Positions 3-14,449 of a DNA stretch of 22,906 bases are shown here, piece by piece. The stretch lies in NCBI GenBank assembly GCA_049599475.1, contig JBMYOQ010000068.1:1-22906 (forward strand). The letters run 5' to 3'. Positions within the stretch are counted from its first letter, which is position 1; each line of letters starts with the position of its first letter. The notes below the pieces were generated by a model. That model was given only the letters and a program-made list of their open reading frames with translations. It made no database searches and had not been told where the DNA came from. Source of the stretch: Opitutales bacterium. Its GTDB lineage: Bacteria > Verrucomicrobiota > Verrucomicrobiia > Opitutales > JABSRG01. Position numbers and translations under genes: made by a program.

Positions 3-52
3 GTAGACAAAACCATATAACCATAAAGCTCAATAATTATTCGAACTGGTAT
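3..52. repeat. Left copy of a 50-bp perfect inverted repeat bounding the window (probable terminus of a multicopy IS/MITE)
   Basis: GTAGACAAAACCATATAACCATAAAGCTCAATAATTATTCGAACTGGTAT at 3-52 is the exact reverse complement of 22857-22906. Identity breaks at 53/22856. The repeat is seen directly; the IS interpretation is inference. Confidence 0.9.
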
Positions 53-2469
53 AAATTGCGGTTGTCTTTTACCGGGGCTAAGGGATTTGTCATCAAATAT
101 GTAGGATAACGCATCTCATGCCCATCGGCAGTAATATAGCCGCTGGGTTTAAGCTGAAGATCGTAGGCAGCGATCGGCAGTGGATTATTGATGTCCGAAT
201 TAGCTAAGATATCGATGTCCTGATCAAGTGTCCACTCATATTCCGGGACACTTTTGGTTTCGAATATTGAAGGGTCGAAACGGTAAGATGCTGCCAACTG
301 CTCATTTATCGGAGTATGCTCGTATCCGATACCTGGAGACATTATGTTTGCAGCAAAACTCGAAGCAACGGGCCAGCGCGAGTCGCTGATATTGGACTGA
401 ATAGTGGAAGTGCCCTCAGCTTGGAAAAAGGTTTGGTAGGATGCAAAGTTGCTTGCGTATCGATAGCCCTTATCATCGGAACCGTCTGTCATGTTTGCTA
501 AGACTCGAGTGAGGTTACTATTCCCATAGCCTCCAAAAGAAGTGGATAGTGTAACCGAGGTCGCATTTGTATAGAATTCTTGGCCAAAATTTAGGTTGCC
601 TGTGGTGCTGTTTAGGTTCGAACCTTTCCAATTAGCCGAAGCTCCGCTTATTTCGGATGAGACCTGTGACGTTCTATTGGGAACACCTTCGTAAGCCTTT
701 ATTTCGCCGGCATTGAAGCTCCCTGGTGCGACCATGGCGCGTGTTCTGAGATCGTCCGAGCCACTTTCCCAACTACTTTCAGATGTATTGTTTATCGGTG
801 TCCCGGTACCGGTTTCGTACATGAAAGCACGTAGGTTGAATCCTCGTCTCGTTTCTGTTGAGAAATAGTCGTGATTTAACTGAATGTTATACGGATTGTG
901 ATAAACGAAAGTATCTCGCGTCTGTTCCCGCACCCGATATTTGTTATAGTCGACAGTCGCCACAGTGTGCGTGCCGGTTGCATCGAAGTGGATGCCTATT
1001 TCGGTAATGATTCTGATATTCAACGGGCCGTAGGTGCCTGCTACCATGGATGGGATGTCAAAGCCTCGTGAACGCAGGGGATCTCCTTCGGTTTCTAAGA
1101 ATGAAGTGCCGTTGCTCATAGTCCTTATTCCGCTCACCACATCGCTTGGAATGCCTGGTACGTCTCTGCAATTGATTTGTGATGTCCCATTGAAGTTGAG
1201 CGCTCGCCCCCCGGTCATCATATAGGCAGGGTGTAAAGACGCGTCGTCACTCAGCGCGTCTGGGTAATCATACAAAGGGTTCGGGTGATGCAAGTTGGGA
1301 CCAAAAATGCGGACGTCCATTTCAGGGGCAGTCATCACATTCTCCACTTCGTGGTAGAGTTGGTAATAGTCGCGTAAAATGTGCCAAGTTGGGCCGTGAG
1401 CGGGGACACTTACACCGTCTGGGCTGGTGTTCTCTAGCCAGAAAATGGGTTGTACATCGAAGGTTGCACCCGCCCAGGGTGAGTAGGCGTTGGGGCCAGC
1501 TCCGGCAAATTCTGATAGATTGAAGTCCGCCTCGCTCATCTCAAATGCGAGGGATAGATCCTTCTTGAGTCCGCCGTTTTTGACGTCCGAGAGCACGCCC
1601 ATGGCGTGGGTGTTAAGATGGTGGAAGTACTGATTCCCGATTTTTTCGGTGCCGTCGTTGGTATTAGAATCTGCGGCGAAATTTACGTGCTCCAGAGCGG
1701 ATATCGCTGTAGGGTCATTGCGGTAGAAATTCTCAAATGCAGAAGTGTCGAGACCGTCTAAGGCCAGGGGGACGCTCAGTGGGCTCGCATTGGCGAAGTG
1801 TATCGAAAGCTCCTTCGCCTCTTTTGAGTCTGGATTCTCAATAGTTGGGGAAGTCGTGTTGATGCGCGCCTTTAGGTTTTCGTCACCGATCCACCATGCG
1901 TAGCGCCCGACGGTATCGCTACCGTCTGTGAGGGTGGTGTATGAGGCATCTACAGAAATTTGTTCGGTGGCGACTTCGGCTTGGCCGTCGCCATCTGCAT
2001 CCAGGGACCCGGGCCCGACAAGGATTACGGTGTTGTCTGGATCGGTGCTCACGGGTTCAGTATTGTAGCCGGCGCGTAGGGTTCCGCTGGTATCTTTGGC
2101 GTCTGAGGCTAGCCAAGAAACCAGTTCGCCTTGCGAAAACGACTGCCCTCCGATGTCAACATCGGCGCTGGACCATACCCCAATTGCGTGCAGGCGGGAA
2201 CTGTCAGAATCGGCGAATTGATTGGCGGGTGCGGAGACGCGTTGATCGGGTCCCATCGCATTTTGTAGCTCACCCAGGGCTAGGCGCATAGCGAGCACCG
2301 CATTTTGCTGTGCGAGAATATCGCTCCTGTCACCACCAGAGGTCTTATCTTCGAAGCGAATGATCACGGTGAGGCTCAATACAATGAGTACGAGCAATGA
2401 GATCAGCACGAGGCTCATTACTAGGGCGAAACCCGTGTGGGTTGTCGATCTACGAGGCATTTTTTGCAT
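37..2469 (-). CDS. Large PilX/GspK-like prepilin-domain protein (Verru_Chthon cassette protein A-like), probably C-terminally truncated by the repeat
   Basis: Class III signal-like N-terminus (RRSTTHTG|FALVMSLVLISLLVLIVLSL, no Glu5). Contains AQQNA...ALGELQ...GPDQRVSA, GRYAWWIGDENLKARIN and GVLSDVKNGGLKKDLS, motifs I recognise from large verrucomicrobial PilX-like proteins. The last codons (YQFE*) lie inside the terminal repeat. Confidence 0.7.
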   Translation of the reverse strand: MQKMPRRSTTHTGFALVMSLVLISLLVLIVLSLTVIIRFEDKTSGGDRSDILAQQNAVLAMRLALGELQNAMGPDQRVSAPANQFADSDSSRLHAIGVWSSADVDIGGQSFSQGELVSWLASDAKDTSGTLRAGYNTEPVSTDPDNTVILVGPGSLDADGDGQAEVATEQISVDASYTTLTDGSDTVGRYAWWIGDENLKARINTTSPTIENPDSKEAKELSIHFANASPLSVPLALDGLDTSAFENFYRNDPTAISALEHVNFAADSNTNDGTEKIGNQYFHHLNTHAMGVLSDVKNGGLKKDLSLAFEMSEADFNLSEFAGAGPNAYSPWAGATFDVQPIFWLENTSPDGVSVPAHGPTWHILRDYYQLYHEVENVMTAPEMDVRIFGPNLHHPNPLYDYPDALSDDASLHPAYMMTGGRALNFNGTSQINCRDVPGIPSDVVSGIRTMSNGTSFLETEGDPLRSRGFDIPSMVAGTYGPLNIRIITEIGIHFDATGTHTVATVDYNKYRVREQTRDTFVYHNPYNIQLNHDYFSTETRRGFNLRAFMYETGTGTPINNTSESSWESGSDDLRTRAMVAPGSFNAGEIKAYEGVPNRTSQVSSEISGASANWKGSNLNSTTGNLNFGQEFYTNATSVTLSTSFGGYGNSNLTRVLANMTDGSDDKGYRYASNFASYQTFFQAEGTSTIQSNISDSRWPVASSFAANIMSPGIGYEHTPINEQLAASYRFDPSIFETKSVPEYEWTLDQDIDILANSDINNPLPIAAYDLQLKPSGYITADGHEMRYPTYLMTNPLAPVKDNRNLYQFE

Positions 2470-2845: not shown

Positions 2846-4177
2846 CTACTTGCGGCTTTCTTCTGTGCGAATCTTTTCCTCTCGGGCCCATTCTAAGCTT
2901 TCAATGTTCACGGACGGATGCCCAACGAAATTGCGTTTTATGAGCTCTTCGTCGGCGAGGGCATTGAGTGTGAACTGGAGGCCATGACACTGGATACATG
3001 AGGTGCGGATCATTTTTTCATTTGGCCGCAAAGTGTTGTTTTGGTTGTGATCGACTCGGATCTTAGTCTCGCCGAACTCGTTCACTTCGATTCGCGGCAT
3101 GTGGCAGGTGGCGCAGCTTACGCCGGTATTTGGCGCTGCCAGGCCTTTAATTTCCTGTTCCCAGGCCATGAAGTGCTTCGAGTTGATGTAATTGTTCGAG
3201 TGTTCGTCGCCGTGACACTGCATACATGCCTGCGTCGCCGCGTATTGGGTGTCGAACTCATGGCCACCGTGGCAGCTGATACAATTCAGCTCCTTGTGCG
3301 CAGCGCTGGCTTTCATCTCTAGGCGAGCGAGCTCTGGGCGCATGGGCGACAAGCCCTGGGCGATTCGCATCCCGTGCATGCCTTCGAGGAAGGATTTGTT
3401 CTCGTATTCGTGGCACTTTACGCAGCTCATGTGGGTGGGCTTCTCCACCCAGAAATTTGGGCCTTGAGATTTGTCGCCGTGACAATCCATGCAATTTACG
3501 CCTGCGGCCGCATGGCTGGAGGCTTCCCAGCTGGTGTGCCAGTCTGTGTCGTCTGCGGTTTTTACGGGAGCGTCTGCTTCAGGTATACCAGCAGATGCAG
3601 CGGCCATCTCATCGTAGAAACTACGGGCCAAGAGATGGGGATCTTCTAGATGGTTGGGCTGATCCAGATTTTCGACGAGGAAGCGTTCGTAGAGAGCTGA
3701 ATTGTCGTGGAAATTGTGGCAGCCTGCAGTTGCGCAGGTATCGAAGGTGAGGTCTGCGTGGGTTTCGCGCTCATCGAAGATCGTTTCGTGGCAGTAGACA
3801 CAATAATCCTTCGGTAGGGTGACTCCCATTTCGAGTGTAGTGTCCGGGCTGTGCTCTTTATGGCAGGCAATGCATTTGGTCGCCTCGATGTTTTCTAGGC
3901 GTGGGGCGTTCCGAGGATCTTTAAATTTTATAACTGGATGCGAGTCGTCCACGCGCTTGAGCTCGTCGGCATGACACTGGGTGCAGGCATTCTGTTTTAC
4001 GCCTTGGTTGGGTGTATGACACACCGCACAGGCCAACTCAATCTGATGGTGACCGTGAGACATCTCGCCGGGAGCGACGAATTCAGGCGACTCTTGATTC
4101 AGTGAATAGGTGAGGCCCGCCGCTAGAGAAATCGAGGCGACGATCCAGATATTCCAAAGTTTGAATTTCTTGAGCAT
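2846..4177 (-). CDS. Membrane-anchored/periplasmic multiheme c-type cytochrome, 11 predicted hemes
   Basis: N-terminal hydrophobic anchor (LWNIWIVASISLAAGLTYSL). Ten CxxCH motifs (CAVCH, CTQCH, CIACH, CVYCH, CMDCH, CVKCH, CISCH, CMQCH, CATCH, CIQCH) plus one Cx4CH (CATAGCH). Many spare His residues for distal ligation. No CxxCK. Confidence 0.92.
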   Translation of the reverse strand: MLKKFKLWNIWIVASISLAAGLTYSLNQESPEFVAPGEMSHGHHQIELACAVCHTPNQGVKQNACTQCHADELKRVDDSHPVIKFKDPRNAPRLENIEATKCIACHKEHSPDTTLEMGVTLPKDYCVYCHETIFDERETHADLTFDTCATAGCHNFHDNSALYERFLVENLDQPNHLEDPHLLARSFYDEMAAASAGIPEADAPVKTADDTDWHTSWEASSHAAAGVNCMDCHGDKSQGPNFWVEKPTHMSCVKCHEYENKSFLEGMHGMRIAQGLSPMRPELARLEMKASAAHKELNCISCHGGHEFDTQYAATQACMQCHGDEHSNNYINSKHFMAWEQEIKGLAAPNTGVSCATCHMPRIEVNEFGETKIRVDHNQNNTLRPNEKMIRTSCIQCHGLQFTLNALADEELIKRNFVGHPSVNIESLEWAREEKIRTEESRK

Positions 4178-4178
4178 C

Positions 4179-6155
4179 TTAGTAGAGGTAGACCTTTGCT
4201 ATGTGGATGCCTAAGAGGGCGATGTAGGGCCACAGGAGAGCCATGTGGATGGCTGTTGCCGCGGATCGGATTTGACGTCCGCGAATTCCCTGGAAGCGGT
4301 GTTCTTGAGAAAGCGTCACGGCGACGAGTGCGCCCGTGGTATTCAGGGTGATGAAAGTGGCTGCGAGCCAAAAGTTTAGGCGATCTCCAAGGCTGAAACC
4401 CGTGTGTAGGAACAACCCAATTAGCGTAGTGAGGCCTAAGGTCGTGTGGAAATTGCGCCAGAATTGATAGTTGCCCCACTTAAACCAGCGTGTGCGCTTA
4501 CGCAGGGATACAATCAATGAAATTGCACTGGCCCCCGCGATGCTGAATCCGGTGATCTGTTTGGTAAGCGTCTCGTTCCAGAGTCGACTGAATTTATAGA
4601 GTGCCGATTGAACGGTATCGGTGGGGTTGATACCAGGTACAAAAATGAATGCTAATACGAAAATTGCAGCTAAGGCGCCCATGATTGGCATCCAGACATG
4701 CTTTTTTACAGCCGGTGCTTCGTCGCTCTCCGTGTTGCTTTCTCCAGTCAATTGGCGCAGCTGAGGTACGCACGATTCGCATACGGTGCCAGCGCGGCAA
4801 GCGCTTCCGAGGGCCTCTACAGTGTTGTGTCCTTCGCCGATTAGATTGCGCAGTTTGCCACATGTCATGCCTGTACAACTACACACAACTGCGTTGTCTG
4901 GCCAAAGCTGAGAATCGGTGTCCGGGAGAATCTCCGGGATGTCGCCTGTCTGAGGAAATTGGCGTAGGGACCGGGCGGCTATACGGACGCGAGTGGAAAC
5001 AGCGGATTCCAAGGCGCTGCCTTGATCCCATTTTCCGATCGAAATCGCTCCCTGTAGGTTGCCTTTGTCTAGAGAAATATAGCGATACGCTTCGTCCGTT
5101 TTATACTCACTGGTCCGACCGTCGTCGAGATAGGAGCCAAACATGGATACTTCCAGAGGACCTACGTTGAGCCGGGAGCTGAGCGTGCTTCCCTCATAGG
5201 TGACGCTTTGGCCGGTAAGCCGTTTTGCCAATACGTCTGCCATGGCATAACCGGGAGCGACGAGTCCGTACCGTGTGCCTCGATACATGGCGCAGGCGCC
5301 GATGGCGTAGATGTCGGGCTGGTTTGTTTGCAGGGTATCATCTATGAGGATACCTCCTTGGACACCCGAATTGATCCCTGATGGATCGGCAAATTCGCTA
5401 TTGGCTTGGTCGCCTGTGGCGACGACACAGAAGTCGCACCAGATGTTCTCGCCATCGGACGTTTCCAGAATCAGCCCATCATCATCGGGCGTTATGGATC
5501 GAGTGTCTTTCTTCGGCAAAATTTCGATGCCGAGTTTACGGAAAGATTCGAGTAAATGTTGACCCGCGGGTTCGTTGAGTTGGCGGGGCATGGGCCAGCG
5601 CGCGATCTCGTAGACGGTCACTTTACAGTTTCGTTGGGTCAAGGCATAGGCAGCCTCGAGTCCCAGGAGACCGCCACCGAGCACCACTACATTTTTTGGG
5701 GCATCAAGATTTTTCTCAATGCTGCGCAGATCTTTAAGACTGCGGTAGGTGTAAACATTTGGGCTATGGATGCCTGGAATGTTGGGGACGCGCGGTTTTG
5801 CTCCGGTAGCCAAAACCAGCGAGTCGTAATCATGGTAATGGCCCGAGCGACACAAGATTTGCTTGCGGTCCGGGAAAATTTCAAAGACGCGATCGCCGTT
5901 TATGAATTCGACGCCAGTGCTGTCATACCATGACTGAGGCCTCAGTTCGTCGACCTCGGCATCTGGAGAGGCGAGGGCCTGACTGAGATGAATGCGGTCG
6001 TAGGGTAGCCCCTTCTCATCTCCAATAACCTTTATACTTAGTTTGTTCTTTTTGCTTTGATGTCGAAGTAAGGCCTCGCAGAAGTAATGACCAACCATGC
6101 CGTGACCAACAACGATCACAGAGTGGGCTGAGTCCTTTTTTGCTTTGCTAGGCAT
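4179..6155 (-). CDS. NirB-like FAD/NAD(P)H oxidoreductase with one BFD-like [2Fe-2S] domain, fused to a C-terminal ~5-TM probable diheme-b membrane domain
   Basis: VIVVGHGMVGH (FAD), LVLATGA, VVVLGGGLLGLEAA (NAD), TNQPDIYAIGACA and GLVAPGYAMA match the NirB/NasB N-terminal module. VCSC...AGTVCESC is BFD-like. The C-terminus has five hydrophobic segments, two with H-x13-H pairs (FHTTLGLTTLIGLFLH, IHMALLWPYIALLGIH). No siroheme/[4Fe-4S] domain. Confidence 0.88.
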   Translation of the reverse strand: MPSKAKKDSAHSVIVVGHGMVGHYFCEALLRHQSKKNKLSIKVIGDEKGLPYDRIHLSQALASPDAEVDELRPQSWYDSTGVEFINGDRVFEIFPDRKQILCRSGHYHDYDSLVLATGAKPRVPNIPGIHSPNVYTYRSLKDLRSIEKNLDAPKNVVVLGGGLLGLEAAYALTQRNCKVTVYEIARWPMPRQLNEPAGQHLLESFRKLGIEILPKKDTRSITPDDDGLILETSDGENIWCDFCVVATGDQANSEFADPSGINSGVQGGILIDDTLQTNQPDIYAIGACAMYRGTRYGLVAPGYAMADVLAKRLTGQSVTYEGSTLSSRLNVGPLEVSMFGSYLDDGRTSEYKTDEAYRYISLDKGNLQGAISIGKWDQGSALESAVSTRVRIAARSLRQFPQTGDIPEILPDTDSQLWPDNAVVCSCTGMTCGKLRNLIGEGHNTVEALGSACRAGTVCESCVPQLRQLTGESNTESDEAPAVKKHVWMPIMGALAAIFVLAFIFVPGINPTDTVQSALYKFSRLWNETLTKQITGFSIAGASAISLIVSLRKRTRWFKWGNYQFWRNFHTTLGLTTLIGLFLHTGFSLGDRLNFWLAATFITLNTTGALVAVTLSQEHRFQGIRGRQIRSAATAIHMALLWPYIALLGIHIAKVYLY

Positions 6156-6250: not shown

Positions 6251-6733
6251 TTATCCTTCTGCTGCCGCGTCCTTCATGGTCGTGGCGAGCAGGGTGTAAG
6301 TCTTGAGCCAAGCTACTTTTACTTCTTCAGTGAAGGCATCTCCAAGGCCTTGTCCCAAAGTCCAGATGAGTGCTGAACCTACAGTGTCGTAGTGCTCGTC
6401 TTTCACTCCATATCCAGCGTGGCGCTTGCCCATGGCTTGGACTGCGCCGACAATTGTATCGAGTTTATCAAGACCATTCACCGCTGTGGTGATCATAGTC
6501 ATGAGCTTCTTTCCTTGCTCTTTAATGTCGGTCTTGAAAAGCGGTTTTACGCTTGGATCAAGCTCGAATAGTTTGCCGTAAAAAAGATCAGCAGCTGTTT
6601 CCGCGATTGGAATACATTTGCCCCAGCTCTCTTGTACGAGCTGAATTTCTTTTTCTGTGATAGGTGCAGTTAGGTCAGGTTCAGACATTTTCTTTTCAGG
6701 TTTAGAAAACAGAGATTTGATGAAATTGATCAT
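6251..6733 (-). CDS. Single-domain 3/3 bacterial globin (flavohemoglobin-type globin domain without reductase; probable NO dioxygenase/NO-binding)
   Basis: LVQESW (A helix), LFYGKLFELDP (TyrB10), PLF (PheCD1), EQGKKL (GlnE7), MGKRHAGYGV (HisF8), HYDTVGSAL, AW...Y. The start overlaps the cytochrome c5 stop (ATGA). Confidence 0.93.
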   Translation of the reverse strand: MINFIKSLFSKPEKKMSEPDLTAPITEKEIQLVQESWGKCIPIAETAADLFYGKLFELDPSVKPLFKTDIKEQGKKLMTMITTAVNGLDKLDTIVGAVQAMGKRHAGYGVKDEHYDTVGSALIWTLGQGLGDAFTEEVKVAWLKTYTLLATTMKDAAAEG

Positions 6734-7164
6734 TTGCTTGAGTAGGTTACGAAATCGACAGCGAGTTTAACTTCTTCGTCAGTCAGGTCGGTGAATCCTC
6801 CTTTAGGAGGCATTTGATTATAGCTAGGGCCAATGAAGCCCTCGATGGCATGCTTGTAAAGCGTCTCTTTACCCTTGGCGATGCGAGTAGACCATGCAGC
6901 GACATCTCCAATTTTTGGAGCGCCTCCGAGGCCTGTCAAGTGACACTGTGAGCAGGTAGCCATCCATATTTTACGCCCGTCAATAAGGCCAGGTTCAGAC
7001 AATTCCAGTGCCATCGGATCGAATGCCTTAGGCTCTGGCTTGCTAGAAGCTGACGGTGTTGTATCACCCGACTTCTTTCCACAACCGATGAACGCTAGCA
7101 TGCAGACTACGAACATCGTAAGTGCGAGAAAAAAGGCAGGTGCGGAGATACCACGCTCACTCAT
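6730..7164 (-). CDS. Cytochrome c5-family monoheme lipoprotein
   Basis: Lipobox-like LAFIG|C, then a low-complexity linker. CSQCH, GAPKIGD..AW..RI..G...LY.HAI.GF and MPPKGG (distal Met) are typical of the c5 class. Confidence 0.88.
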   Translation of the reverse strand: MSERGISAPAFFLALTMFVVCMLAFIGCGKKSGDTTPSASSKPEPKAFDPMALELSEPGLIDGRKIWMATCSQCHLTGLGGAPKIGDVAAWSTRIAKGKETLYKHAIEGFIGPSYNQMPPKGGFTDLTDEEVKLAVDFVTYSSK

Positions 7165-7176
7165 TGTTCGTAATGA

Positions 7177-7761
7177 TTAAGCGTCGATTGGTATGCGAAT
7201 AACCACGCCTCCCATGACATCTCCAAGTTCGAAATCTGTCTTAGGGCTGTCCTTGTGCTCATTGTGGCAGGTTACGCAAACCGGCGCTACTGCGATGTCA
7301 GGATAAATTGCGGTGAAGTATTTCTGACCCCCGAGGCTTTCCTCAGAGTAGAAGTTTTCACCTACATTATCAGCGATATACTGTAGACCTTCTTTCTCAA
7401 CGTCAGTCTGAGTCGCAGCATTTGGTTTGTTGATTGGCCATAGAGATTGGAGCGAATAGCTGAAAAAAGCATCTTTTTCCGCGGTAAGCTCTGCACCCAT
7501 ACGAAACATTTGCGCTGGAAGGGGCAGAGCCTTGTCTTCCATGAATTGTTCGCTGGCTTTGATTACCTTTTCACCCTTAACGAGGCGGTTAACCACCTGT
7601 TGCGTGTAAACGGTACGATCATTTTCGAGGACCATATGCAGCGCGTCGGCCGCCTTCTGGTAGCTGAGGGTTGGACCCTCAGCGCTAGATTCTCCGCAGC
7701 CTGTAAACAGGAGCGCTCCGGCAGCTGCGAGAGAACTGATGATAGCAGTGTTTTTTTTCAT
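7177..7761 (-). CDS. DUF3365 / Tll0287-like monoheme c lipoprotein
   Basis: Lipobox LLFTG|C. Contains R.VYT..VV, LPLPAQM, SLWPINK.N, YFTAIYPD.AV...CVTCHN and LGDVMGGVVIRIP. Start moved from 7797 to the ATG at 7761 (MKKNTA..., normal signal peptide); the upstream ATG lies inside the predicted promoter/operator. Confidence 0.85.
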   Translation of the reverse strand: MKKNTAIISSLAAAGALLFTGCGESSAEGPTLSYQKAADALHMVLENDRTVYTQQVVNRLVKGEKVIKASEQFMEDKALPLPAQMFRMGAELTAEKDAFFSYSLQSLWPINKPNAATQTDVEKEGLQYIADNVGENFYSEESLGGQKYFTAIYPDIAVAPVCVTCHNEHKDSPKTDFELGDVMGGVVIRIPIDA

Positions 7762-7792
7762 ATTGAGAGAGGCACAGAAATGCCTGCGCGTT

Positions 7793-7815
7793 AACATGCA
7801 TCCAGAATGCCACTT
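7793..7815 (-). promoter_or_regulatory. Overlapping sigma-54 (-24/-12)-like promoter and NsrR-like operator for the heme-protein operon
   Basis: The minus strand reads AAGTGGCATTCTGGATGCATGTT. TGGCAT-TCTGG-ATGCA has the GG/GC spacing of the RpoN consensus TGGCAC-N5-TTGC. The 23-mer also aligns with the NsrR 11-1-11 consensus AAGATGYATTTNAAATRCATCTT (GCAT-N5-ATGC core). It ends 31 nt upstream of ATG 7761. Confidence 0.6.
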
Positions 7816-8048: not shown

Positions 8049-8492
8049 CTAGGCGGTCGCTAGCTGTTTCTTGAAATGCTCAGCTAAGCCAGGGTGCGCT
8101 AGGGCGTCGGCTAAAGTGTAGGCCCGGAGCGTTTTGATGAAGGCGTTGCGTGCCTGGGCTAGAATGCCTTTCAGCGCACAGCAGTTGTTCAGATTGCAGG
8201 TATTGGTCTTAGAATCGAAACACTCGACGATGTTGAAGTGAGGTTCGGTTTGGAGAACCAGGGTGCCCACATTAATTTCTTCTGGGGTTTTCTTCATTTT
8301 GATTCCGCCGTTTTTACCTCGGATCGTCTCAATGTAGCCCAACTCGCTGAGGCGATTGACAATCTTTGCTATGTGGTGGCGGGAGACTCCGTAATACTCC
8401 GCGACCATATCTATGGATGCGAGTTTTTCGGGTTCACGGCCCAAATAAATGAGCAGGCGAAGGGAGTAGTCTGTGAAGGCAGTCAGTTCCAC
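8049..8492 (-). CDS. nsrR: Rrf2-family Fe-S transcriptional regulator, NsrR-type (NO-sensing repressor)
   Basis: GTG start. MELTAFTDYSLRLLIYL, SRHHIAKIV..L...GYIETIRGKNGGI, and ECFDSKTNTCNLNNCCALK (C-x7-C-x5-C, as in Bacillus-type NsrR). Adjacent to a globin. Confidence 0.85.
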   Translation of the reverse strand: MELTAFTDYSLRLLIYLGREPEKLASIDMVAEYYGVSRHHIAKIVNRLSELGYIETIRGKNGGIKMKKTPEEINVGTLVLQTEPHFNIVECFDSKTNTCNLNNCCALKGILAQARNAFIKTLRAYTLADALAHPGLAEHFKKQLATA

Positions 8493-8523: not shown

Positions 8524-8557
8524 ATTATATCAATAAGAAGTATTCATCAAGCACCTT
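8524..8557 (-). promoter_or_regulatory. nsrR promoter: extended -10 (TGnTATAAT) with an adjacent NsrR-like operator (autoregulation)
   Basis: The minus strand reads AAGGTGCTTGATGAATACTTCTT (8557-8535; imperfect 11-1-11 palindrome resembling AAGATGYATTTNAAATRCATCTT), followed by AT-TGA-TATAAT (TATAAT = 8529-8524), 31 nt before the GTG. Confidence 0.65.
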
Positions 8558-11025: not shown

Positions 11026-11706
11026 ATGATCCGATTATCATCCCTTCCTGTCTCTGTCGGTCTGATATTCTTGACCTGTGCACAGCTTCTAAGCGCGATT
11101 GAAATACGCCTAGCGACTGAAAACCCAGGCAACGAAAAAAAGACCCAATTTCTTTTTTCAAAACTGGGTTCTGATGATCCAGAGATTCGCGGAGGCCCGA
11201 TATTGGCGCCTGTCGTTTCGAGTGCGATACGGGGCGTAGACGGTGAAATTTTGATTACATGGAAAGCATCGGCGAAGACATCCGAGCAGAACCCGGAAAC
11301 ATGGGTTTTTGGCGACGTGAACGGATTCATCGACACGCGAGACAAAGGCTGGGGGGTGCGGTCTCCGAAAGAGAAAATGGGAGACCTGCAGCTATTCGAG
11401 GAAGAAGCCTTTCTCATCGAGTTTGATCTCTCTGAGGCGAAGATTGAACCAGGGCGTAAGTTGGTATTTCGCCTGGGGGTTTCCGGGGAAAGTCCAGAGA
11501 GTTTTAAGGTATATTATCGTAAATCGGAAAACTCTGGCGAGCTTGTGGAATCATTCATCTACAAGGAGGGCCAGAGCCCCGTTACCGATCCTATTTACAT
11601 CGAAGGCTCAAAAGCCGAATTCGCTATTACTGAAGCGGGTTTTAAAGGGGGGAGTCTACTCAGACTGTATTCATTCTTCCTCGATACGATACCGGTGTCC
11701 AACTAG
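11026..11706 (+). CDS. Secreted hypothetical protein (paralogue 1 of a tandem pair)
   Basis: Signal peptide ending ...AQLLSA. Colinear similarity to 11963-12649 (AIEI.LA, RGGP, W.FG, RD.GWG, EFD.S, PG..L.F.L.V, EFA). Confidence 0.75.
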   Translation: MIRLSSLPVSVGLIFLTCAQLLSAIEIRLATENPGNEKKTQFLFSKLGSDDPEIRGGPILAPVVSSAIRGVDGEILITWKASAKTSEQNPETWVFGDVNGFIDTRDKGWGVRSPKEKMGDLQLFEEEAFLIEFDLSEAKIEPGRKLVFRLGVSGESPESFKVYYRKSENSGELVESFIYKEGQSPVTDPIYIEGSKAEFAITEAGFKGGSLLRLYSFFLDTIPVSN

Positions 11707-11962: not shown

Positions 11963-12649
11963 ATGCGATTACCCTGTTTACCCCTCTCGATCGTTCTTCA
12001 ATGTGTTTTGCTGAGCTCTGCAGGTGCTGCGATAGAGATCAAACTGGCACGAGGTGAGATCGATGCACCCGAAACGGAATTCTATTTTGGTGACTTGGAT
12101 TATAGTGAGGCCGACGTGCGAGGCGGTCCGATGTATGCCGAAGTAGCCGAAAGCGTCTTAAAGAGAGTGAAGGGTAGCTTCAAAATGAAGTGGATTGCTA
12201 AGGGAAACTATGAAAACGTCGACCCCTCCGCATGGGATTTTGGTAATAACCAGGCGACCCTTATCTCGCGGGATATCGGCTGGGGAATTCAGACTGAGAA
12301 TGAAGGCGAAATGAGGCCTAGAATTCGGCCCCAGGAAACCCTTTTGTTCGAATTTGATTTTTCAAAACTCGTGATCGTGCCGGGGTATTTACTCACTTTC
12401 CAGCTCGTCGTGGACTCCGACTTGGATAATCACTTCAAGTTGTTTCAAAGAGTAGGAGCGAAAGAAGGCGTGGAGGCCAAAATCCTGAAATCGGGAAAGC
12501 ACAACCCGAAATCGGTTGGCCCTGTTGCCATTACTCGAGGTCGGCCTGAGTTTGCTTTCGGCAGGCATCGGGAGGGCCGAGGAAAGGCCTTTATCGTCGA
12601 CTCGTTCGTGATCGATGTCGTTCCCGAATCAGTATTTGAAGCAAAATAA
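11963..12649 (+). CDS. Secreted hypothetical protein (paralogue 2 of a tandem pair)
   Basis: Signal peptide ending ...SSAGA. Same motif order as 11026-11706 and near-identical length (228 vs 226 aa). Confidence 0.75.
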   Translation: MRLPCLPLSIVLQCVLLSSAGAAIEIKLARGEIDAPETEFYFGDLDYSEADVRGGPMYAEVAESVLKRVKGSFKMKWIAKGNYENVDPSAWDFGNNQATLISRDIGWGIQTENEGEMRPRIRPQETLLFEFDFSKLVIVPGYLLTFQLVVDSDLDNHFKLFQRVGAKEGVEAKILKSGKHNPKSVGPVAITRGRPEFAFGRHREGRGKAFIVDSFVIDVVPESVFEAK

Positions 12650-12671: not shown

Positions 12672-13769
12672 TCACCCCTGTTTTTTAGGAATGCGCACGT
12701 GGAATTCTGTTCCTTTCAATTGAGAACTCTTAAAATCAATTGTGCCTTTGTGGGCCTCTACGAAGGCTTTTACGACAGCCATTCCCAGTCCCGTCCCGTT
12801 GCGCTTACCGTGGGTAACAAAGGGCTCGAACAGGGTGTTCTGAATCTCAGGTGGTATCCCTGGGCCGTTGTCCGCAATAGTGAATAGGACATATTTTCCG
12901 TCGTCTTCAACGGAGATGTCAATGCGGCCATATTCCGTCTTTTCGAGAACCTCATAGGCATTTGAAAGTAGATTTTGAAAGACGCGCATCAGGCGGTTGT
13001 GGTCACCGTGAAAATGCAAGGCTTCGACCTTTCCAATGACGACTTCCACCTTGTCGCTTTCAAAGTAGGTGGGAAAATTACGGGGTAGGGCATCGATGAA
13101 TTCCACCGTGTGGTAGAGCTGAGTCTTCAGCCGCGTATCACCCCGGACATATGCCAAAATATCCTCCGCCATATCCTCAATGCGGTTGATCTGGCCTTTC
13201 ATCGATTCGCAGACTTCTTGTGATTTGCTATCGGTTGTTTTGTAGCCCAAGAGGTCAACGCCCAGTGAAATGCAGCTCAGGGGATTGCGGAAGTCGTGGA
13301 TGAGCGAGCTCATCATTTGGCCGATGAGGGTCATCTTTTGCTTCTTGATGAGCTCCGCGACATAATGGTCTGTGGTCTCATGGAGGTGCCCCACTAAGCC
13401 ATCCAGGACGCAGCGCAGTGGCAGTTGATTCGCATCGATAAGCTCATCGATTGTGGCTTTCGGTATGTGCAAAAGGTCTGTCTTTTCGGATGCCGTGGCG
13501 CTGAGGGATCGTGGCTCTCCGCTGAAGATTCCGAGCTCGCCGAAATGTTCTCCCGCGCTCGCGCGGCTTACGATCTGGCGCTTCCCGTCGGCAAGTTGTT
13601 TACGAAACTCAACTTCGCCTTCCATGATGACATAGATGCCATCGTAAGGGGTATTTTCCGGAAATATCTCTTCATTACTCTGGAAAGTCCGTCGGTCAGC
13701 ACTGCCCATGATATGCTTACGCGTATCCTTTGAGCAGCTGTTCAAGAATGAGGACGTTTCTGTTTTCAT
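12672..13769 (-). CDS. Cytoplasmic sensor histidine kinase with an N-terminal cyclic-nucleotide-binding (cNMP/CAP_ED) domain
   Basis: IYVIMEGEV, GEHFGELG..SGEPRSLSATA (cNMP). H-box LIHDFRNPL, N-box FQNLLSNA, DNGPGIP, LFEPFVT, GTGLGM. No TM segments. Start placed at ATG 13769. Confidence 0.92.
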   Translation of the reverse strand: MKTETSSFLNSCSKDTRKHIMGSADRRTFQSNEEIFPENTPYDGIYVIMEGEVEFRKQLADGKRQIVSRASAGEHFGELGIFSGEPRSLSATASEKTDLLHIPKATIDELIDANQLPLRCVLDGLVGHLHETTDHYVAELIKKQKMTLIGQMMSSLIHDFRNPLSCISLGVDLLGYKTTDSKSQEVCESMKGQINRIEDMAEDILAYVRGDTRLKTQLYHTVEFIDALPRNFPTYFESDKVEVVIGKVEALHFHGDHNRLMRVFQNLLSNAYEVLEKTEYGRIDISVEDDGKYVLFTIADNGPGIPPEIQNTLFEPFVTHGKRNGTGLGMAVVKAFVEAHKGTIDFKSSQLKGTEFHVRIPKKQG

Positions 13770-13858
13770 ACAACAGAAGTCGGGCGAACGTGGGCAAAAA
13801 TAAAGCCCGGAACCAAAGGTCCCGAGCTTCATTAAAAATTAACTGCTATCTGCGCGAA

Positions 13859-14449
13859 TTAAGCGTTGCTGGACAGGTAAGATTTTACCCCTTCAGCAGT
13901 GGGAGCCATGGCTTCCTCGCCGGCTTTCCAGTTTGCAGGGCAGACTTCGCCGTTTGCCTCGAAGTATTGGAGAGCGTCTACCATACGGAGGAGCTCATCC
14001 ACGGAACGTCCGAGTGGAAGGTTGTTGACCACTTGGTGCTGAACGATGCCGTCCTTGTCGATGAGGAAGGTGCCACGCATGGCTACACCTGCTTCGTGCT
14101 CGATGCCATAAGCGCGGCAGATCTCGTGCTTTACATCCGCAACCATAGGGAATTTTACAGGGCCAATGCCTCCCTCTTCGATAGGCGTGTTGCGCCACGC
14201 AAAGTGAGAGAATTGAGAGTCAATAGATACTCCCACGACTTCTACGCCTTTGGCTTCAAACTCAGCCATCTTCTTGTCGTGCGCGATGATTTCAGTCGGG
14301 CAGACGAAGGTGAAGTCGAGAGGCCAGAAGAAGAGGGCTACATGTTTTCCGCGGAGGTCAGAGAGCTTGAAAGACTCGTTGATCACGCCATTTCCCATGA
14401 CGGCTGCTGCGGTAAAATCGGGTGCTGTTTTGTTTACAAGTACGCTCAT
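13859..14449 (-). CDS. ahpC: Typical 2-Cys peroxiredoxin (AhpC/Tsa family)
   Basis: FWPLDFTFVCPTE (peroxidatic Cys), RGTFLID, GRSVDE, GEVCPANW (resolving Cys). Confidence 0.95.
   Translation of the reverse strand: MSVLVNKTAPDFTAAAVMGNGVINESFKLSDLRGKHVALFFWPLDFTFVCPTEIIAHDKKMAEFEAKGVEVVGVSIDSQFSHFAWRNTPIEEGGIGPVKFPMVADVKHEICRAYGIEHEAGVAMRGTFLIDKDGIVQHQVVNNLPLGRSVDELLRMVDALQYFEANGEVCPANWKAGEEAMAPTAEGVKSYLSSNA

Follow-up and report, generated by a model that had tools for sequence, protein, structure and literature searches.

What would a protein do that begins like NirB, the large subunit of nitrite reductase (NADH), and ends in the membrane? A gene that raises this question lies on contig JBMYOQ010000068.1 of an Opitutales bacterium (assembly GCA_049599475.1), of which we analysed positions 1 to 22,906 (22,906 nucleotides; hereafter, the window). 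Its 658-amino-acid product joins a NirB-type FAD/NAD module and one BFD domain to a predicted five-helix membrane domain. An earlier note, made from the letters of this DNA, had read it as a one-polypeptide trans-membrane electron exporter. Our analysis supported the exporter interpretation but made the functional unit a cassette of several genes, not one polypeptide, and linked it to nitrate assimilation or to NsrR-like control. Fusion and cassette are real, widespread, and mislabelled, and they would be a new variation on a known type of trans-membrane electron transfer; we hold it likely that the fusion is, as predicted, a trans-membrane di-heme electron carrier coupled to an 11-heme cytochrome. 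Neither was described in the literature searched, a search that left most subscription journals outside its scope.

Loci were collected through the neighbouring cytochrome gene to avoid selection on the fusion itself. At least 576 cytochrome relatives were found among at least 600 pattern-matched stretches, a count that does not refer to genomes, and analysis continued with the best 80; the 71 fusions of at least 600 amino acids from these loci, together with the window protein, made up a set of 72 full-length fusions.

Domain layout and spread of the fusion

The fusion gene and its parts are located as follows.

4179-6155, minus strand: whole fusion open reading frame (P0001), 658 amino acids; NirB-type FAD/NAD module, one BFD, and predicted five-helix membrane domain
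4911-6122, minus strand: FAD/NAD(P)H module, residues ~12-415 (Pfam, PDB sequence matches, Foldseek, and column counts)
5607-5609 and 5295-5297, minus strand: codons of E183 and of A287 (E in the family), respectively (column counts)
4749-4889, minus strand: single BFD-like predicted [2Fe-2S] domain with C425, C427, C459, and C462 (PF04324, E 2e-8; Cys conserved in 72/72)
4695-4748, minus strand: flexible acidic linker, residues 470-487 (sequence; predicted local distance difference test [pLDDT] <50 at 475-485)
4182-4694, minus strand: membrane domain, five predicted helices (sequence, AlphaFold2, conservation, fold search, and Lys/Arg distribution)
4446-4448, 4404-4406, 4245-4247, and 4203-4205, minus strand: codons of the predicted heme b ligands H570, H584, H637, and H651, respectively

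Pfam recognized Pyr_redox_2 at residues 12-293 and one Fer2_BFD at 423-469, where the Cys motif reads C425-x-C427...C459-x2-C462, and it gave no match to the siroheme/[4Fe-4S] half of NirB (NIR_SIR; PF01077/PF03460). The NirB model TIGR02374 covered residues 14-475 only, with 333.3 bits (below its cut-off of 578.35), and the N-terminal ~470 residues were ~30% identical to true NirB, up to residue 462-469. In the full-length AlphaFold2 model (pLDDT 85), the flavoprotein is followed by the BFD domain, by a linker containing ESNTESDE that is disordered, with low confidence at 475-485, and, at the C-terminus, by five long helices. When this model was submitted to Foldseek, its N-terminal part resembled glutathione-reductase-type ferredoxin/rubredoxin reductases (best E 4e-34), and only flavoprotein matches stood among the rows listed; a profile match also related the soluble module to NorW. 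These results agreed with the earlier description of a FAD/NAD module with a single BFD-like cluster, followed by a short acidic linker and about five membrane segments in place of the siroheme half.

The acidic residue in VTVYE had been taken to indicate NADH as the electron donor. This residue, E183, is real, but only 46 of the 72 full-length fusions have an acidic residue in its column (E 44, Q 19, H 7, D 2). NADH is therefore a likely donor for the window protein, judged from this residue, and not a preference of the whole family.

A nine-sequence profile retrieved 308 clusters (50% identity) at E ≤1e-30 and 1114 at E ≤1e-3, and among the 147 clusters listed, a NirB-type N-terminus was present in 76 of the 77 proteins of at least 560 amino acids. 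PF01077/PF03460 was carried by none of the 120 long homologues listed, of which 33 bore a name: 27 were called 'nitrite reductase (NADH) large subunit', 4 'FAD-dependent oxidoreductase', and 2 '(2Fe-2S)-binding protein'. The mis-annotation foreseen in the earlier note thus does occur, and, given these names, surveys of nitrate reduction that are based on nirB may miscount by including a protein unable to reduce nitrite by the siroheme route. The 80 loci include members of Verrucomicrobiota, Gamma- and Betaproteobacteria, Planctomycetota, Poribacteria, Binatia, Acidobacteriota, and Lentisphaera, and a fusion-type domain (E <1e-24) was found in 9 genomes of a phylum sample of 401. Cultured carriers belong to Alcanivorax, Cerasicoccus, Neptuniibacter, Hahella, Lentisphaera, and Luteolibacter; the cassette is therefore directly testable in named strains.

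A predicted di-heme membrane domain

AlphaFold2 placed the long helices at residues 488-505, 529-555, 563-585, 593-616, and 624-657, with a short helix at 518-527; the membrane domain alone was modelled with a pLDDT of 91.5 and a predicted template modelling score (pTM) of 0.86. As the earlier note had seen, two H-x13-H pairs, each with its histidines 14 apart, lie on separate helices, H570/H584 on helix 3 and H637/H651 on helix 5. Cytochrome b of bc1 has this arrangement, with H-x13-H pairs on the bundle's second and fourth helices. Loss of the histidines among homologues had been named beforehand as grounds for giving up the di-heme reading; instead, the four His and four Cys were invariant in 28/28 full-length homologues, the four His in 79/79 membrane domains (78 of them collected via the neighbouring cytochrome gene), and all four His, four Cys, and the 14/14 spacing in 72/72 full-length fusions.

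Over the 79 membrane-domain sequences, Lys and Arg together averaged 5.4 per sequence in loop 2 and 4.0 in loop 4, versus 1.3 in loop 1 and 0.5 in loop 3. With the N-terminus in the cytoplasm, this distribution would place H570 and H637 towards the cytoplasm and H584 and H651 towards the periplasm, one His per helix at each level, as a trans-membrane di-heme protein requires.

To which fold the domain belongs was examined by searching 48,161 solved representative chains, with the best 50 matches listed. The best membrane-protein match was E. coli superoxide oxidase (5oc0, a cytochrome b561), with Z 11.1 and a root-mean-square deviation of 2.9 over 127 aligned residues, and helices 2-5 of the model superposed on 5oc0, on cytochrome b6f (Z 9.2), and on the cytochrome b of hydrogenase-1 (Z 9.0). 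No NOX, STEAP, or MsrQ chain was among the best 50 matches listed, a listing that cannot exclude a family. At the sequence level, weak Pfam matches over the 79 domains were to DUF4405 (38), cytochrome b561 (13), and Ferric_reduct (4). For the last family, PF01794, the window domain itself had no match and the four members had E-values up to 0.05 (best 0.0011); the fusion gene was not among the matches of a PF01794 search across the genome, and a profile comparison with 10 PF01794 proteins gave an hhalign probability of 32% (E 5e-4). A PDB sequence search with the membrane-domain profile returned chance-level reaction-centre matches alone (E 0.11-0.14), and the ESM Atlas held nothing at ≥0.9 for this domain, the best being 0.82. 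Taken together, the domain, by its predicted model, is best described as a bundle like that of di-heme cytochromes b, with one additional helix and no place in the curated families, and its modelled fold appears nearer to cytochrome b561 than to NOX/ferric reductase, with a Z-score that is not decisive. The analogy to NOX/ferric reductase drawn in the earlier note therefore stood for the principle, NAD(P)H to heme, but not for the membrane fold, whose best match is the b561-type superoxide oxidase and whose likeness to PF01794 is weak.

Several homologues differ in what is attached to this domain. In P0082 (951 amino acids), a close homologue, the membrane domain follows EF-hands, BFD, and an FNR-type FAD/NAD module, which are the parts of NOX5 in reverse order; its locus had no match in metagenome contigs. 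P0154 (927 amino acids) is a fusion with a ~270-residue low-complexity insert between BFD and membrane domain, and this suggests that its soluble module is flexibly tethered. Distant stand-alone homologues of the membrane domain were seen at L010:1273-2658, L011:1279-2595, and L012:1324-1827. Those at L010 and L011 keep both H-x13-H pairs around a long Pro/Ala-rich insert and sit between an upstream protein that binds cyclic nucleotides (cNMP) and 4Fe-4S and a downstream multiheme cytochrome, and the one at L012 has the first His pair and lies beside a similar cNMP/4Fe-4S-type protein. From L010, L011, and P0082, the di-heme domain and the cytochrome look like a stable unit, to which the cytoplasmic input would be exchangeable.

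A conserved cassette around the fusion

In the window, the fusion gene is accompanied by four genes in the same orientation.

2846-4177, minus strand: 11-heme cytochrome c (ten CxxCH, one CX4CH) with an N-terminal hydrophobic anchor or signal; starts 1 base past the fusion stop
6251-6733, minus strand: single-domain globin, no signal peptide seen (PF00042; PDB 3wfw/3s1i/3ubc/1vhb)
6730-7164, minus strand: monoheme cytochrome c (c5-like) with a lipobox-like LAFIGC (PF13442/PF00034)
7177-7797, minus strand: stand-alone Tll0287/DUF3365 (sCache_heme) cytochrome with a lipobox-like LLFTGC (PF11845, E 1.5e-19)

One base separates fusion and cytochrome and 95 separate globin and fusion, and a 4-base overlap and a 12-base gap follow upstream; judging by the starts of its relatives, the DUF3365 gene probably begins at the downstream MKK at 7761. 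At 77 of the 80 loci, the gene immediately before that of the cytochrome encodes the membrane domain, and the three exceptions are at contig ends. Among 58 well-flanked loci (at least 4.6 kb upstream and at least 2.5 kb downstream), the fusion and the Tll0287/DUF3365 gene occur at all 58, the single-domain globin at 37, the c5-like cytochrome at 26, and an Rrf2 gene at 10; at ten loci a truncated globin takes the same slot in the cassette in place of the single-domain globin. Where the full 10-kb flanks were available (48 loci), a globin was found in 39. Pairwise-identity correlations between cassette parts (Spearman 0.33-0.38) were uninformative.

The 11-heme neighbour mentioned in the earlier note was confirmed as such. 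All 81 cytochrome sequences have 11 heme motifs, every one ending in His, and share exactly 11 invariant His outside these motifs, so that a bis-His wire is the simplest reading of the sequences. CxxCK, the catalytic heme motif of NrfA/octaheme nitrite reductase, was absent from all 81. The closest solved sequence relatives are octaheme nitrite reductase and NrfA, with E-values of 3e-9 to 7e-9 over short, motif-driven stretches.

The globin is closest, among solved relatives, to 3wfw, 3s1i, and 3ubc, which we take to be the Hell's Gate globins of Methylacidiphilum, and then to the Vitreoscilla-type hemoglobin 1vhb, presumably that from Vitreoscilla. When this genome was searched with the globin section of the flavohemoglobin model, the cassette globin was the sole match; no flavohemoglobin above cut-off and no match to an NO-reductase motif (NO, nitric oxide) were found in this genome, which is 96.6% complete. 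At L088:2693-12042, the fusion-cytochrome-DUF3365 cassette occurs twice in tandem, and a truncated globin separates the two copies. At L089:12269-14085, a truncated globin followed by a 2Fe-2S/FNR-type reductase comes right after the cassette, and this globin may have its own reductase.

Nitrogen context and regulation

Nitrate-assimilation genes were recognized by labels ('Nrt' and 'Nas') that we assigned from protein families. At the 48 fully flanked loci, Nrt/NasT-type (ANTAR) genes occur at 22 and an Rrf2 gene at 8, with both at none, and recurrent neighbours are genes for a molybdopterin reductase, a siroheme NirA-type protein, a CysJ-like protein, and true NirB. NirB was above cut-off in 29 of 49 cassette genomes. 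The present genome, in which a full NirB was not found, has a separate nitrate cluster on contig C7 with a transporter, a porin, a molybdopterin reductase, and a siroheme NirA-type gene; over the phylum sample, a NirA-type gene is present in 6 of the 9 fusion-bearing genomes versus 49 of 401 overall, kin that are not independent. By these gene contents, the fusion accompanies the nitrite reductases (NirB/NirA) and is no replacement for them, and our estimate for replacement of the siroheme enzyme was lowered accordingly by their coexistence with the cassette.

An extracellular electron conduit was also considered and rejected: a porin occurs at 16 of the 48 fully flanked loci, and here it lies with the nitrate transporter on contig C7. 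Three CysJ-like flavoproteins are encoded in this genome on contigs C7, C22, and C145, one of them in the nitrate cluster beside the NirA-type gene.

At the window itself, a regulator and two candidate operator sites lie upstream of the cassette.

8049-8492, minus strand: Rrf2-family regulator (best match NsrR, 134.8 bits; cut-off 182)
7795-7813, strand not assigned: NsrR-like palindrome before the operon, with 3/14 mismatches to the published consensus; also a sigma-54-like GG-N10-GC spacing
8537-8555, strand not assigned: second NsrR-like palindrome, 3 mismatches, upstream of the regulator gene

The operator consensus used was gATGyAT-N5-ATrCATc (PMC1274295). Three sites in the window have three or fewer mismatches to it: before the operon, before the regulator, and inside an unrelated gene. 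Over 11 intergenic regions, the mismatches summed to 46, versus a mean of 56.1 and a minimum of 48 for 500 shuffles. The GG-N10-GC spacing was seen by eye, and a strict sigma-54 pattern had no match.

Proposed electron path and competing explanations

We regard a nitrogen-oxide role of the cassette as probable, and we lean towards the following path, with all cofactors predicted, for the handling of NO and nitrite. NADH would reduce FAD in the cytoplasmic module, and the BFD cluster would relay single electrons to the inner b heme, which H570 and H637 would hold, as H584 and H651 would hold the outer one. The outer b heme would then reduce the 11-heme cytochrome, from which electrons may pass to the Tll0287/DUF3365 cytochrome and, where present, to the c5-like cytochrome; in the cytoplasm, that flavin module would also supply the globin with electrons for NO dioxygenation. 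In this path, electron export would run outward. Outward electron transfer would be pulled by the membrane potential and hence would spend energy, which fits a protective (detoxification) or redox-balance role. In Bradyrhizobium, a globin and a flavoprotein module are described as guarding against the NO that arises from nitrate assimilation (PMC4724949), and globins are reported to require a partner reductase to work as NO dioxygenases (PMC3820574).

One alternative, which we consider improbable, makes the main job cytoplasmic: the flavin/BFD module would be the reductase of the globin in a two-protein NO dioxygenase, and the membrane and cytochrome arm a side branch or overflow. The globin in 39/48 fully flanked loci, the lack of a flavohemoglobin above cut-off in this genome, and the kinship of the module with NorW, for which weak reduction of Cgb is described (PMC4724949), speak for it; yet the cytochrome and DUF3365 are the constant parts (58/58) while the globin is lost (9/48) or swapped, and a globin reductase has no need of a di-heme domain. 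In another, the cassette itself is a siroheme-independent nitrite/NO reductase that would act in the periplasm, at an active site on either the 11-heme cytochrome or the Tll0287/DUF3365 heme, and to this we give slightly less credence still. The nearest solved relatives of the cytochrome and the nitrate-assimilation neighbours point that way, as does a stand-alone sCache_heme protein that is described as binding NO weakly and becoming His/OH- on reduction (bioRxiv 10.64898/2026.02.01.703092); however, the NrfA/octaheme matches are short and motif-driven, there is no CxxCK and the invariant His count equals the heme count, NirB is above cut-off in 29/49 cassette genomes, and a siroheme NirA-type gene stands here in a separate cluster. 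Its wider form, in which a siroheme-free, NADH-driven cassette reduces NO or nitrite in the periplasm (on the DUF3365 heme or the cytochrome) while the globin clears NO inside, seems unlikely to us, if less so than either of these two.

Quinone-linked or inward flow, that is, NADH:quinone, quinol:cytochrome c, or periplasm-to-cytoplasm transfer to globin or NAD+, ranks a touch below the periplasmic reductase in our estimate. The direction is not fixed by sequence, but the NADH site and the periplasmic cytochrome are on opposite faces, and reducing NAD+ from periplasmic cytochromes would, on general knowledge, be uphill and against the membrane potential. Superoxide oxidase, the best membrane fold match, does reduce quinone, according to PMC11869295, whereas all four His are kept in the fusions, and FRD proteins thought to bind the surface-side heme alone are reported to have lost one or two (PMC3591440). 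Very little probability falls to a NOX- or ferric-reductase-like enzyme whose outer heme would itself reduce O2 or metal ions: the two-His-pair layout on parallel helices is the same and P0082 has this membrane domain together with EF-hands and an FNR-type module, but a multiheme cytochrome is always downstream, no iron-uptake cluster was identified among the recurrent neighbours, and the window protein has S588 and no His four residues past H584, the place of the NOX His-119 signature as given in PMC3591440. An assembly chimera or broken nirB, suggested by the ~30% identity of the first 470 residues to true NirB, we regard as refuted, with virtually no probability left to it, by the same architecture in many phyla and by invariant cofactor ligands.

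Several observations weigh against the path from NADH through two b hemes to the 11-heme cytochrome. In the fold search, soluble talin bundles (Z 11.8 and 11.5) were level with the 5oc0 match, and a Z below ~13 may reflect a common helical arrangement; for the window membrane domain, no Pfam di-heme family came above cut-off. Met 270 and Met 389 are also invariant in the cytochrome, and all-bis-His ligation is not proven. Nine of the 48 fully flanked loci have no globin, and 18 have neither Nrt/NasT genes nor an Rrf2 gene. The NsrR boxes are weak singly: 17 of 500 shuffles for the window, at least four mismatches in 8 of the 11 regions, which are kin, and three or fewer mismatches reached in 6 of 61 other upstream regions. 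Column 287 is Glu/Asp in 71/72 fusions and Ala in the window protein, and this Ala may weaken FAD binding; the window module is also the longest end branch (1.45) in the module tree described below. By its sequence, the window protein is a divergent member that retains the other invariant residues.

The cassette gives a testable redox context to stand-alone Tll0287/DUF3365 cytochromes and to single-domain globins of the Hell's Gate type.

Other genes of the window and genome

The product of a large open reading frame near the window edge (37-2469, minus strand) is pilin-like at its N-terminus and weakly matches Verru_Chthon cassette protein A (E 0.008). At 11026-11706 and 11963-12649 (plus strand), two adjacent genes encode proteins of 226 and 228 amino acids that look secreted, resemble each other at the N-terminus, and have no Pfam match, and a cNMP-binding histidine kinase adjoins an AhpC-type peroxiredoxin at 12672-13832 and 13859-14449 (minus strand). 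Elsewhere in this genome, C50:4019-6235 is a 739-codon frame with eight CxxCH motifs.

Comparison with known systems

NirB (TIGR02374) shares with the fusion the FAD/NAD module and the first BFD. It differs in that the fusion has one BFD (three of five NirB examined show two motifs) and has a membrane domain replacing the siroheme/[4Fe-4S] half. In a tree of the module (23 fusion and 5 NirB sequences), fusion and NirB were interleaved, with two label changes in 200/200 bootstrap trees, and one true NirB (L086, above cut-off) fell among fusions of Planctomycetota, Verrucomicrobiota, and others; the tree is small and unrooted and covers 23 of the 72 fusions. The pattern fits capture of the flavin module from NirB, perhaps twice.

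The FRD superfamily (NOX, FRE, STEAP, MsrQ/YedZ, and MsrQ-like NAD-binding fusions) likewise passes electrons from NAD(P)H via flavin to trans-membrane hemes (PMC3591440, PMC8238504), and its four heme-ligand His are described as paired on transmembrane helices (TM) 3 and 5, as in the fusion (PMC3591440). In contrast, the fusion has an N-terminal glutathione-reductase-type flavoprotein and an Fe-S relay, not a C-terminal FNR-type domain, and it has five helices, weak sequence likeness, and a multiheme cytochrome c partner; the column of the NOX His-119 signature, S588 in the window protein, is not conserved across the family. The earlier note had claimed a different flavoprotein fold in reverse domain order: the glutathione-reductase-type fold upholds the former, but an N-terminal nucleotide-binding domain has a precedent in STEAP2-4, where, as in the fusion, it precedes the heme domain (PMC3591440). 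A glutathione-reductase-type flavoprotein, a BFD relay, a b561-like di-heme domain, and a multiheme c wire would be a different build for an exporter from NAD(P)H to the outside. Superoxide oxidase CybB (5oc0), cytochrome b6, and hydrogenase cytochrome b resemble the fusion in the four-helix bundle that superposes on helices 2-5, and differ in being quinone-linked, with no matched chain fused to a flavoprotein and an identity of 10-15%.

Among gene clusters, narK-bjgb-flp-nasC of Bradyrhizobium is alike in its single-domain globin and flavoprotein NO-detoxification module, its nitrate-assimilation setting, and its NasS-NasT control, and differs, as far as PMC4724949 describes it, in having no membrane di-heme domain or periplasmic cytochromes. 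The SHP-DHC-cytochrome b operon also combines a membrane cytochrome b with periplasmic c-type cytochromes, but is described as having three genes, with a diheme cytochrome c among their products and without an NADH/flavin module fused to any of them (bioRxiv 10.64898/2026.01.22.701106); the same source mentions a cytochrome b/Fe-S/FAD/NADH fusion beside an eNOR operon. The DUF3365 protein of the cassette belongs to the class of stand-alone sCache_heme proteins, for which a redox-related role is proposed and of which the one from P. putida is given at +123 mV (bioRxiv 10.64898/2026.02.01.703092); that paper leaves their function open, whereas the cassette subfamily has a fixed redox context (58/58). 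By their membership tests, the fusion falls outside the NOX/FRE/STEAP/MsrQ-like exporters, and it is no NirB.

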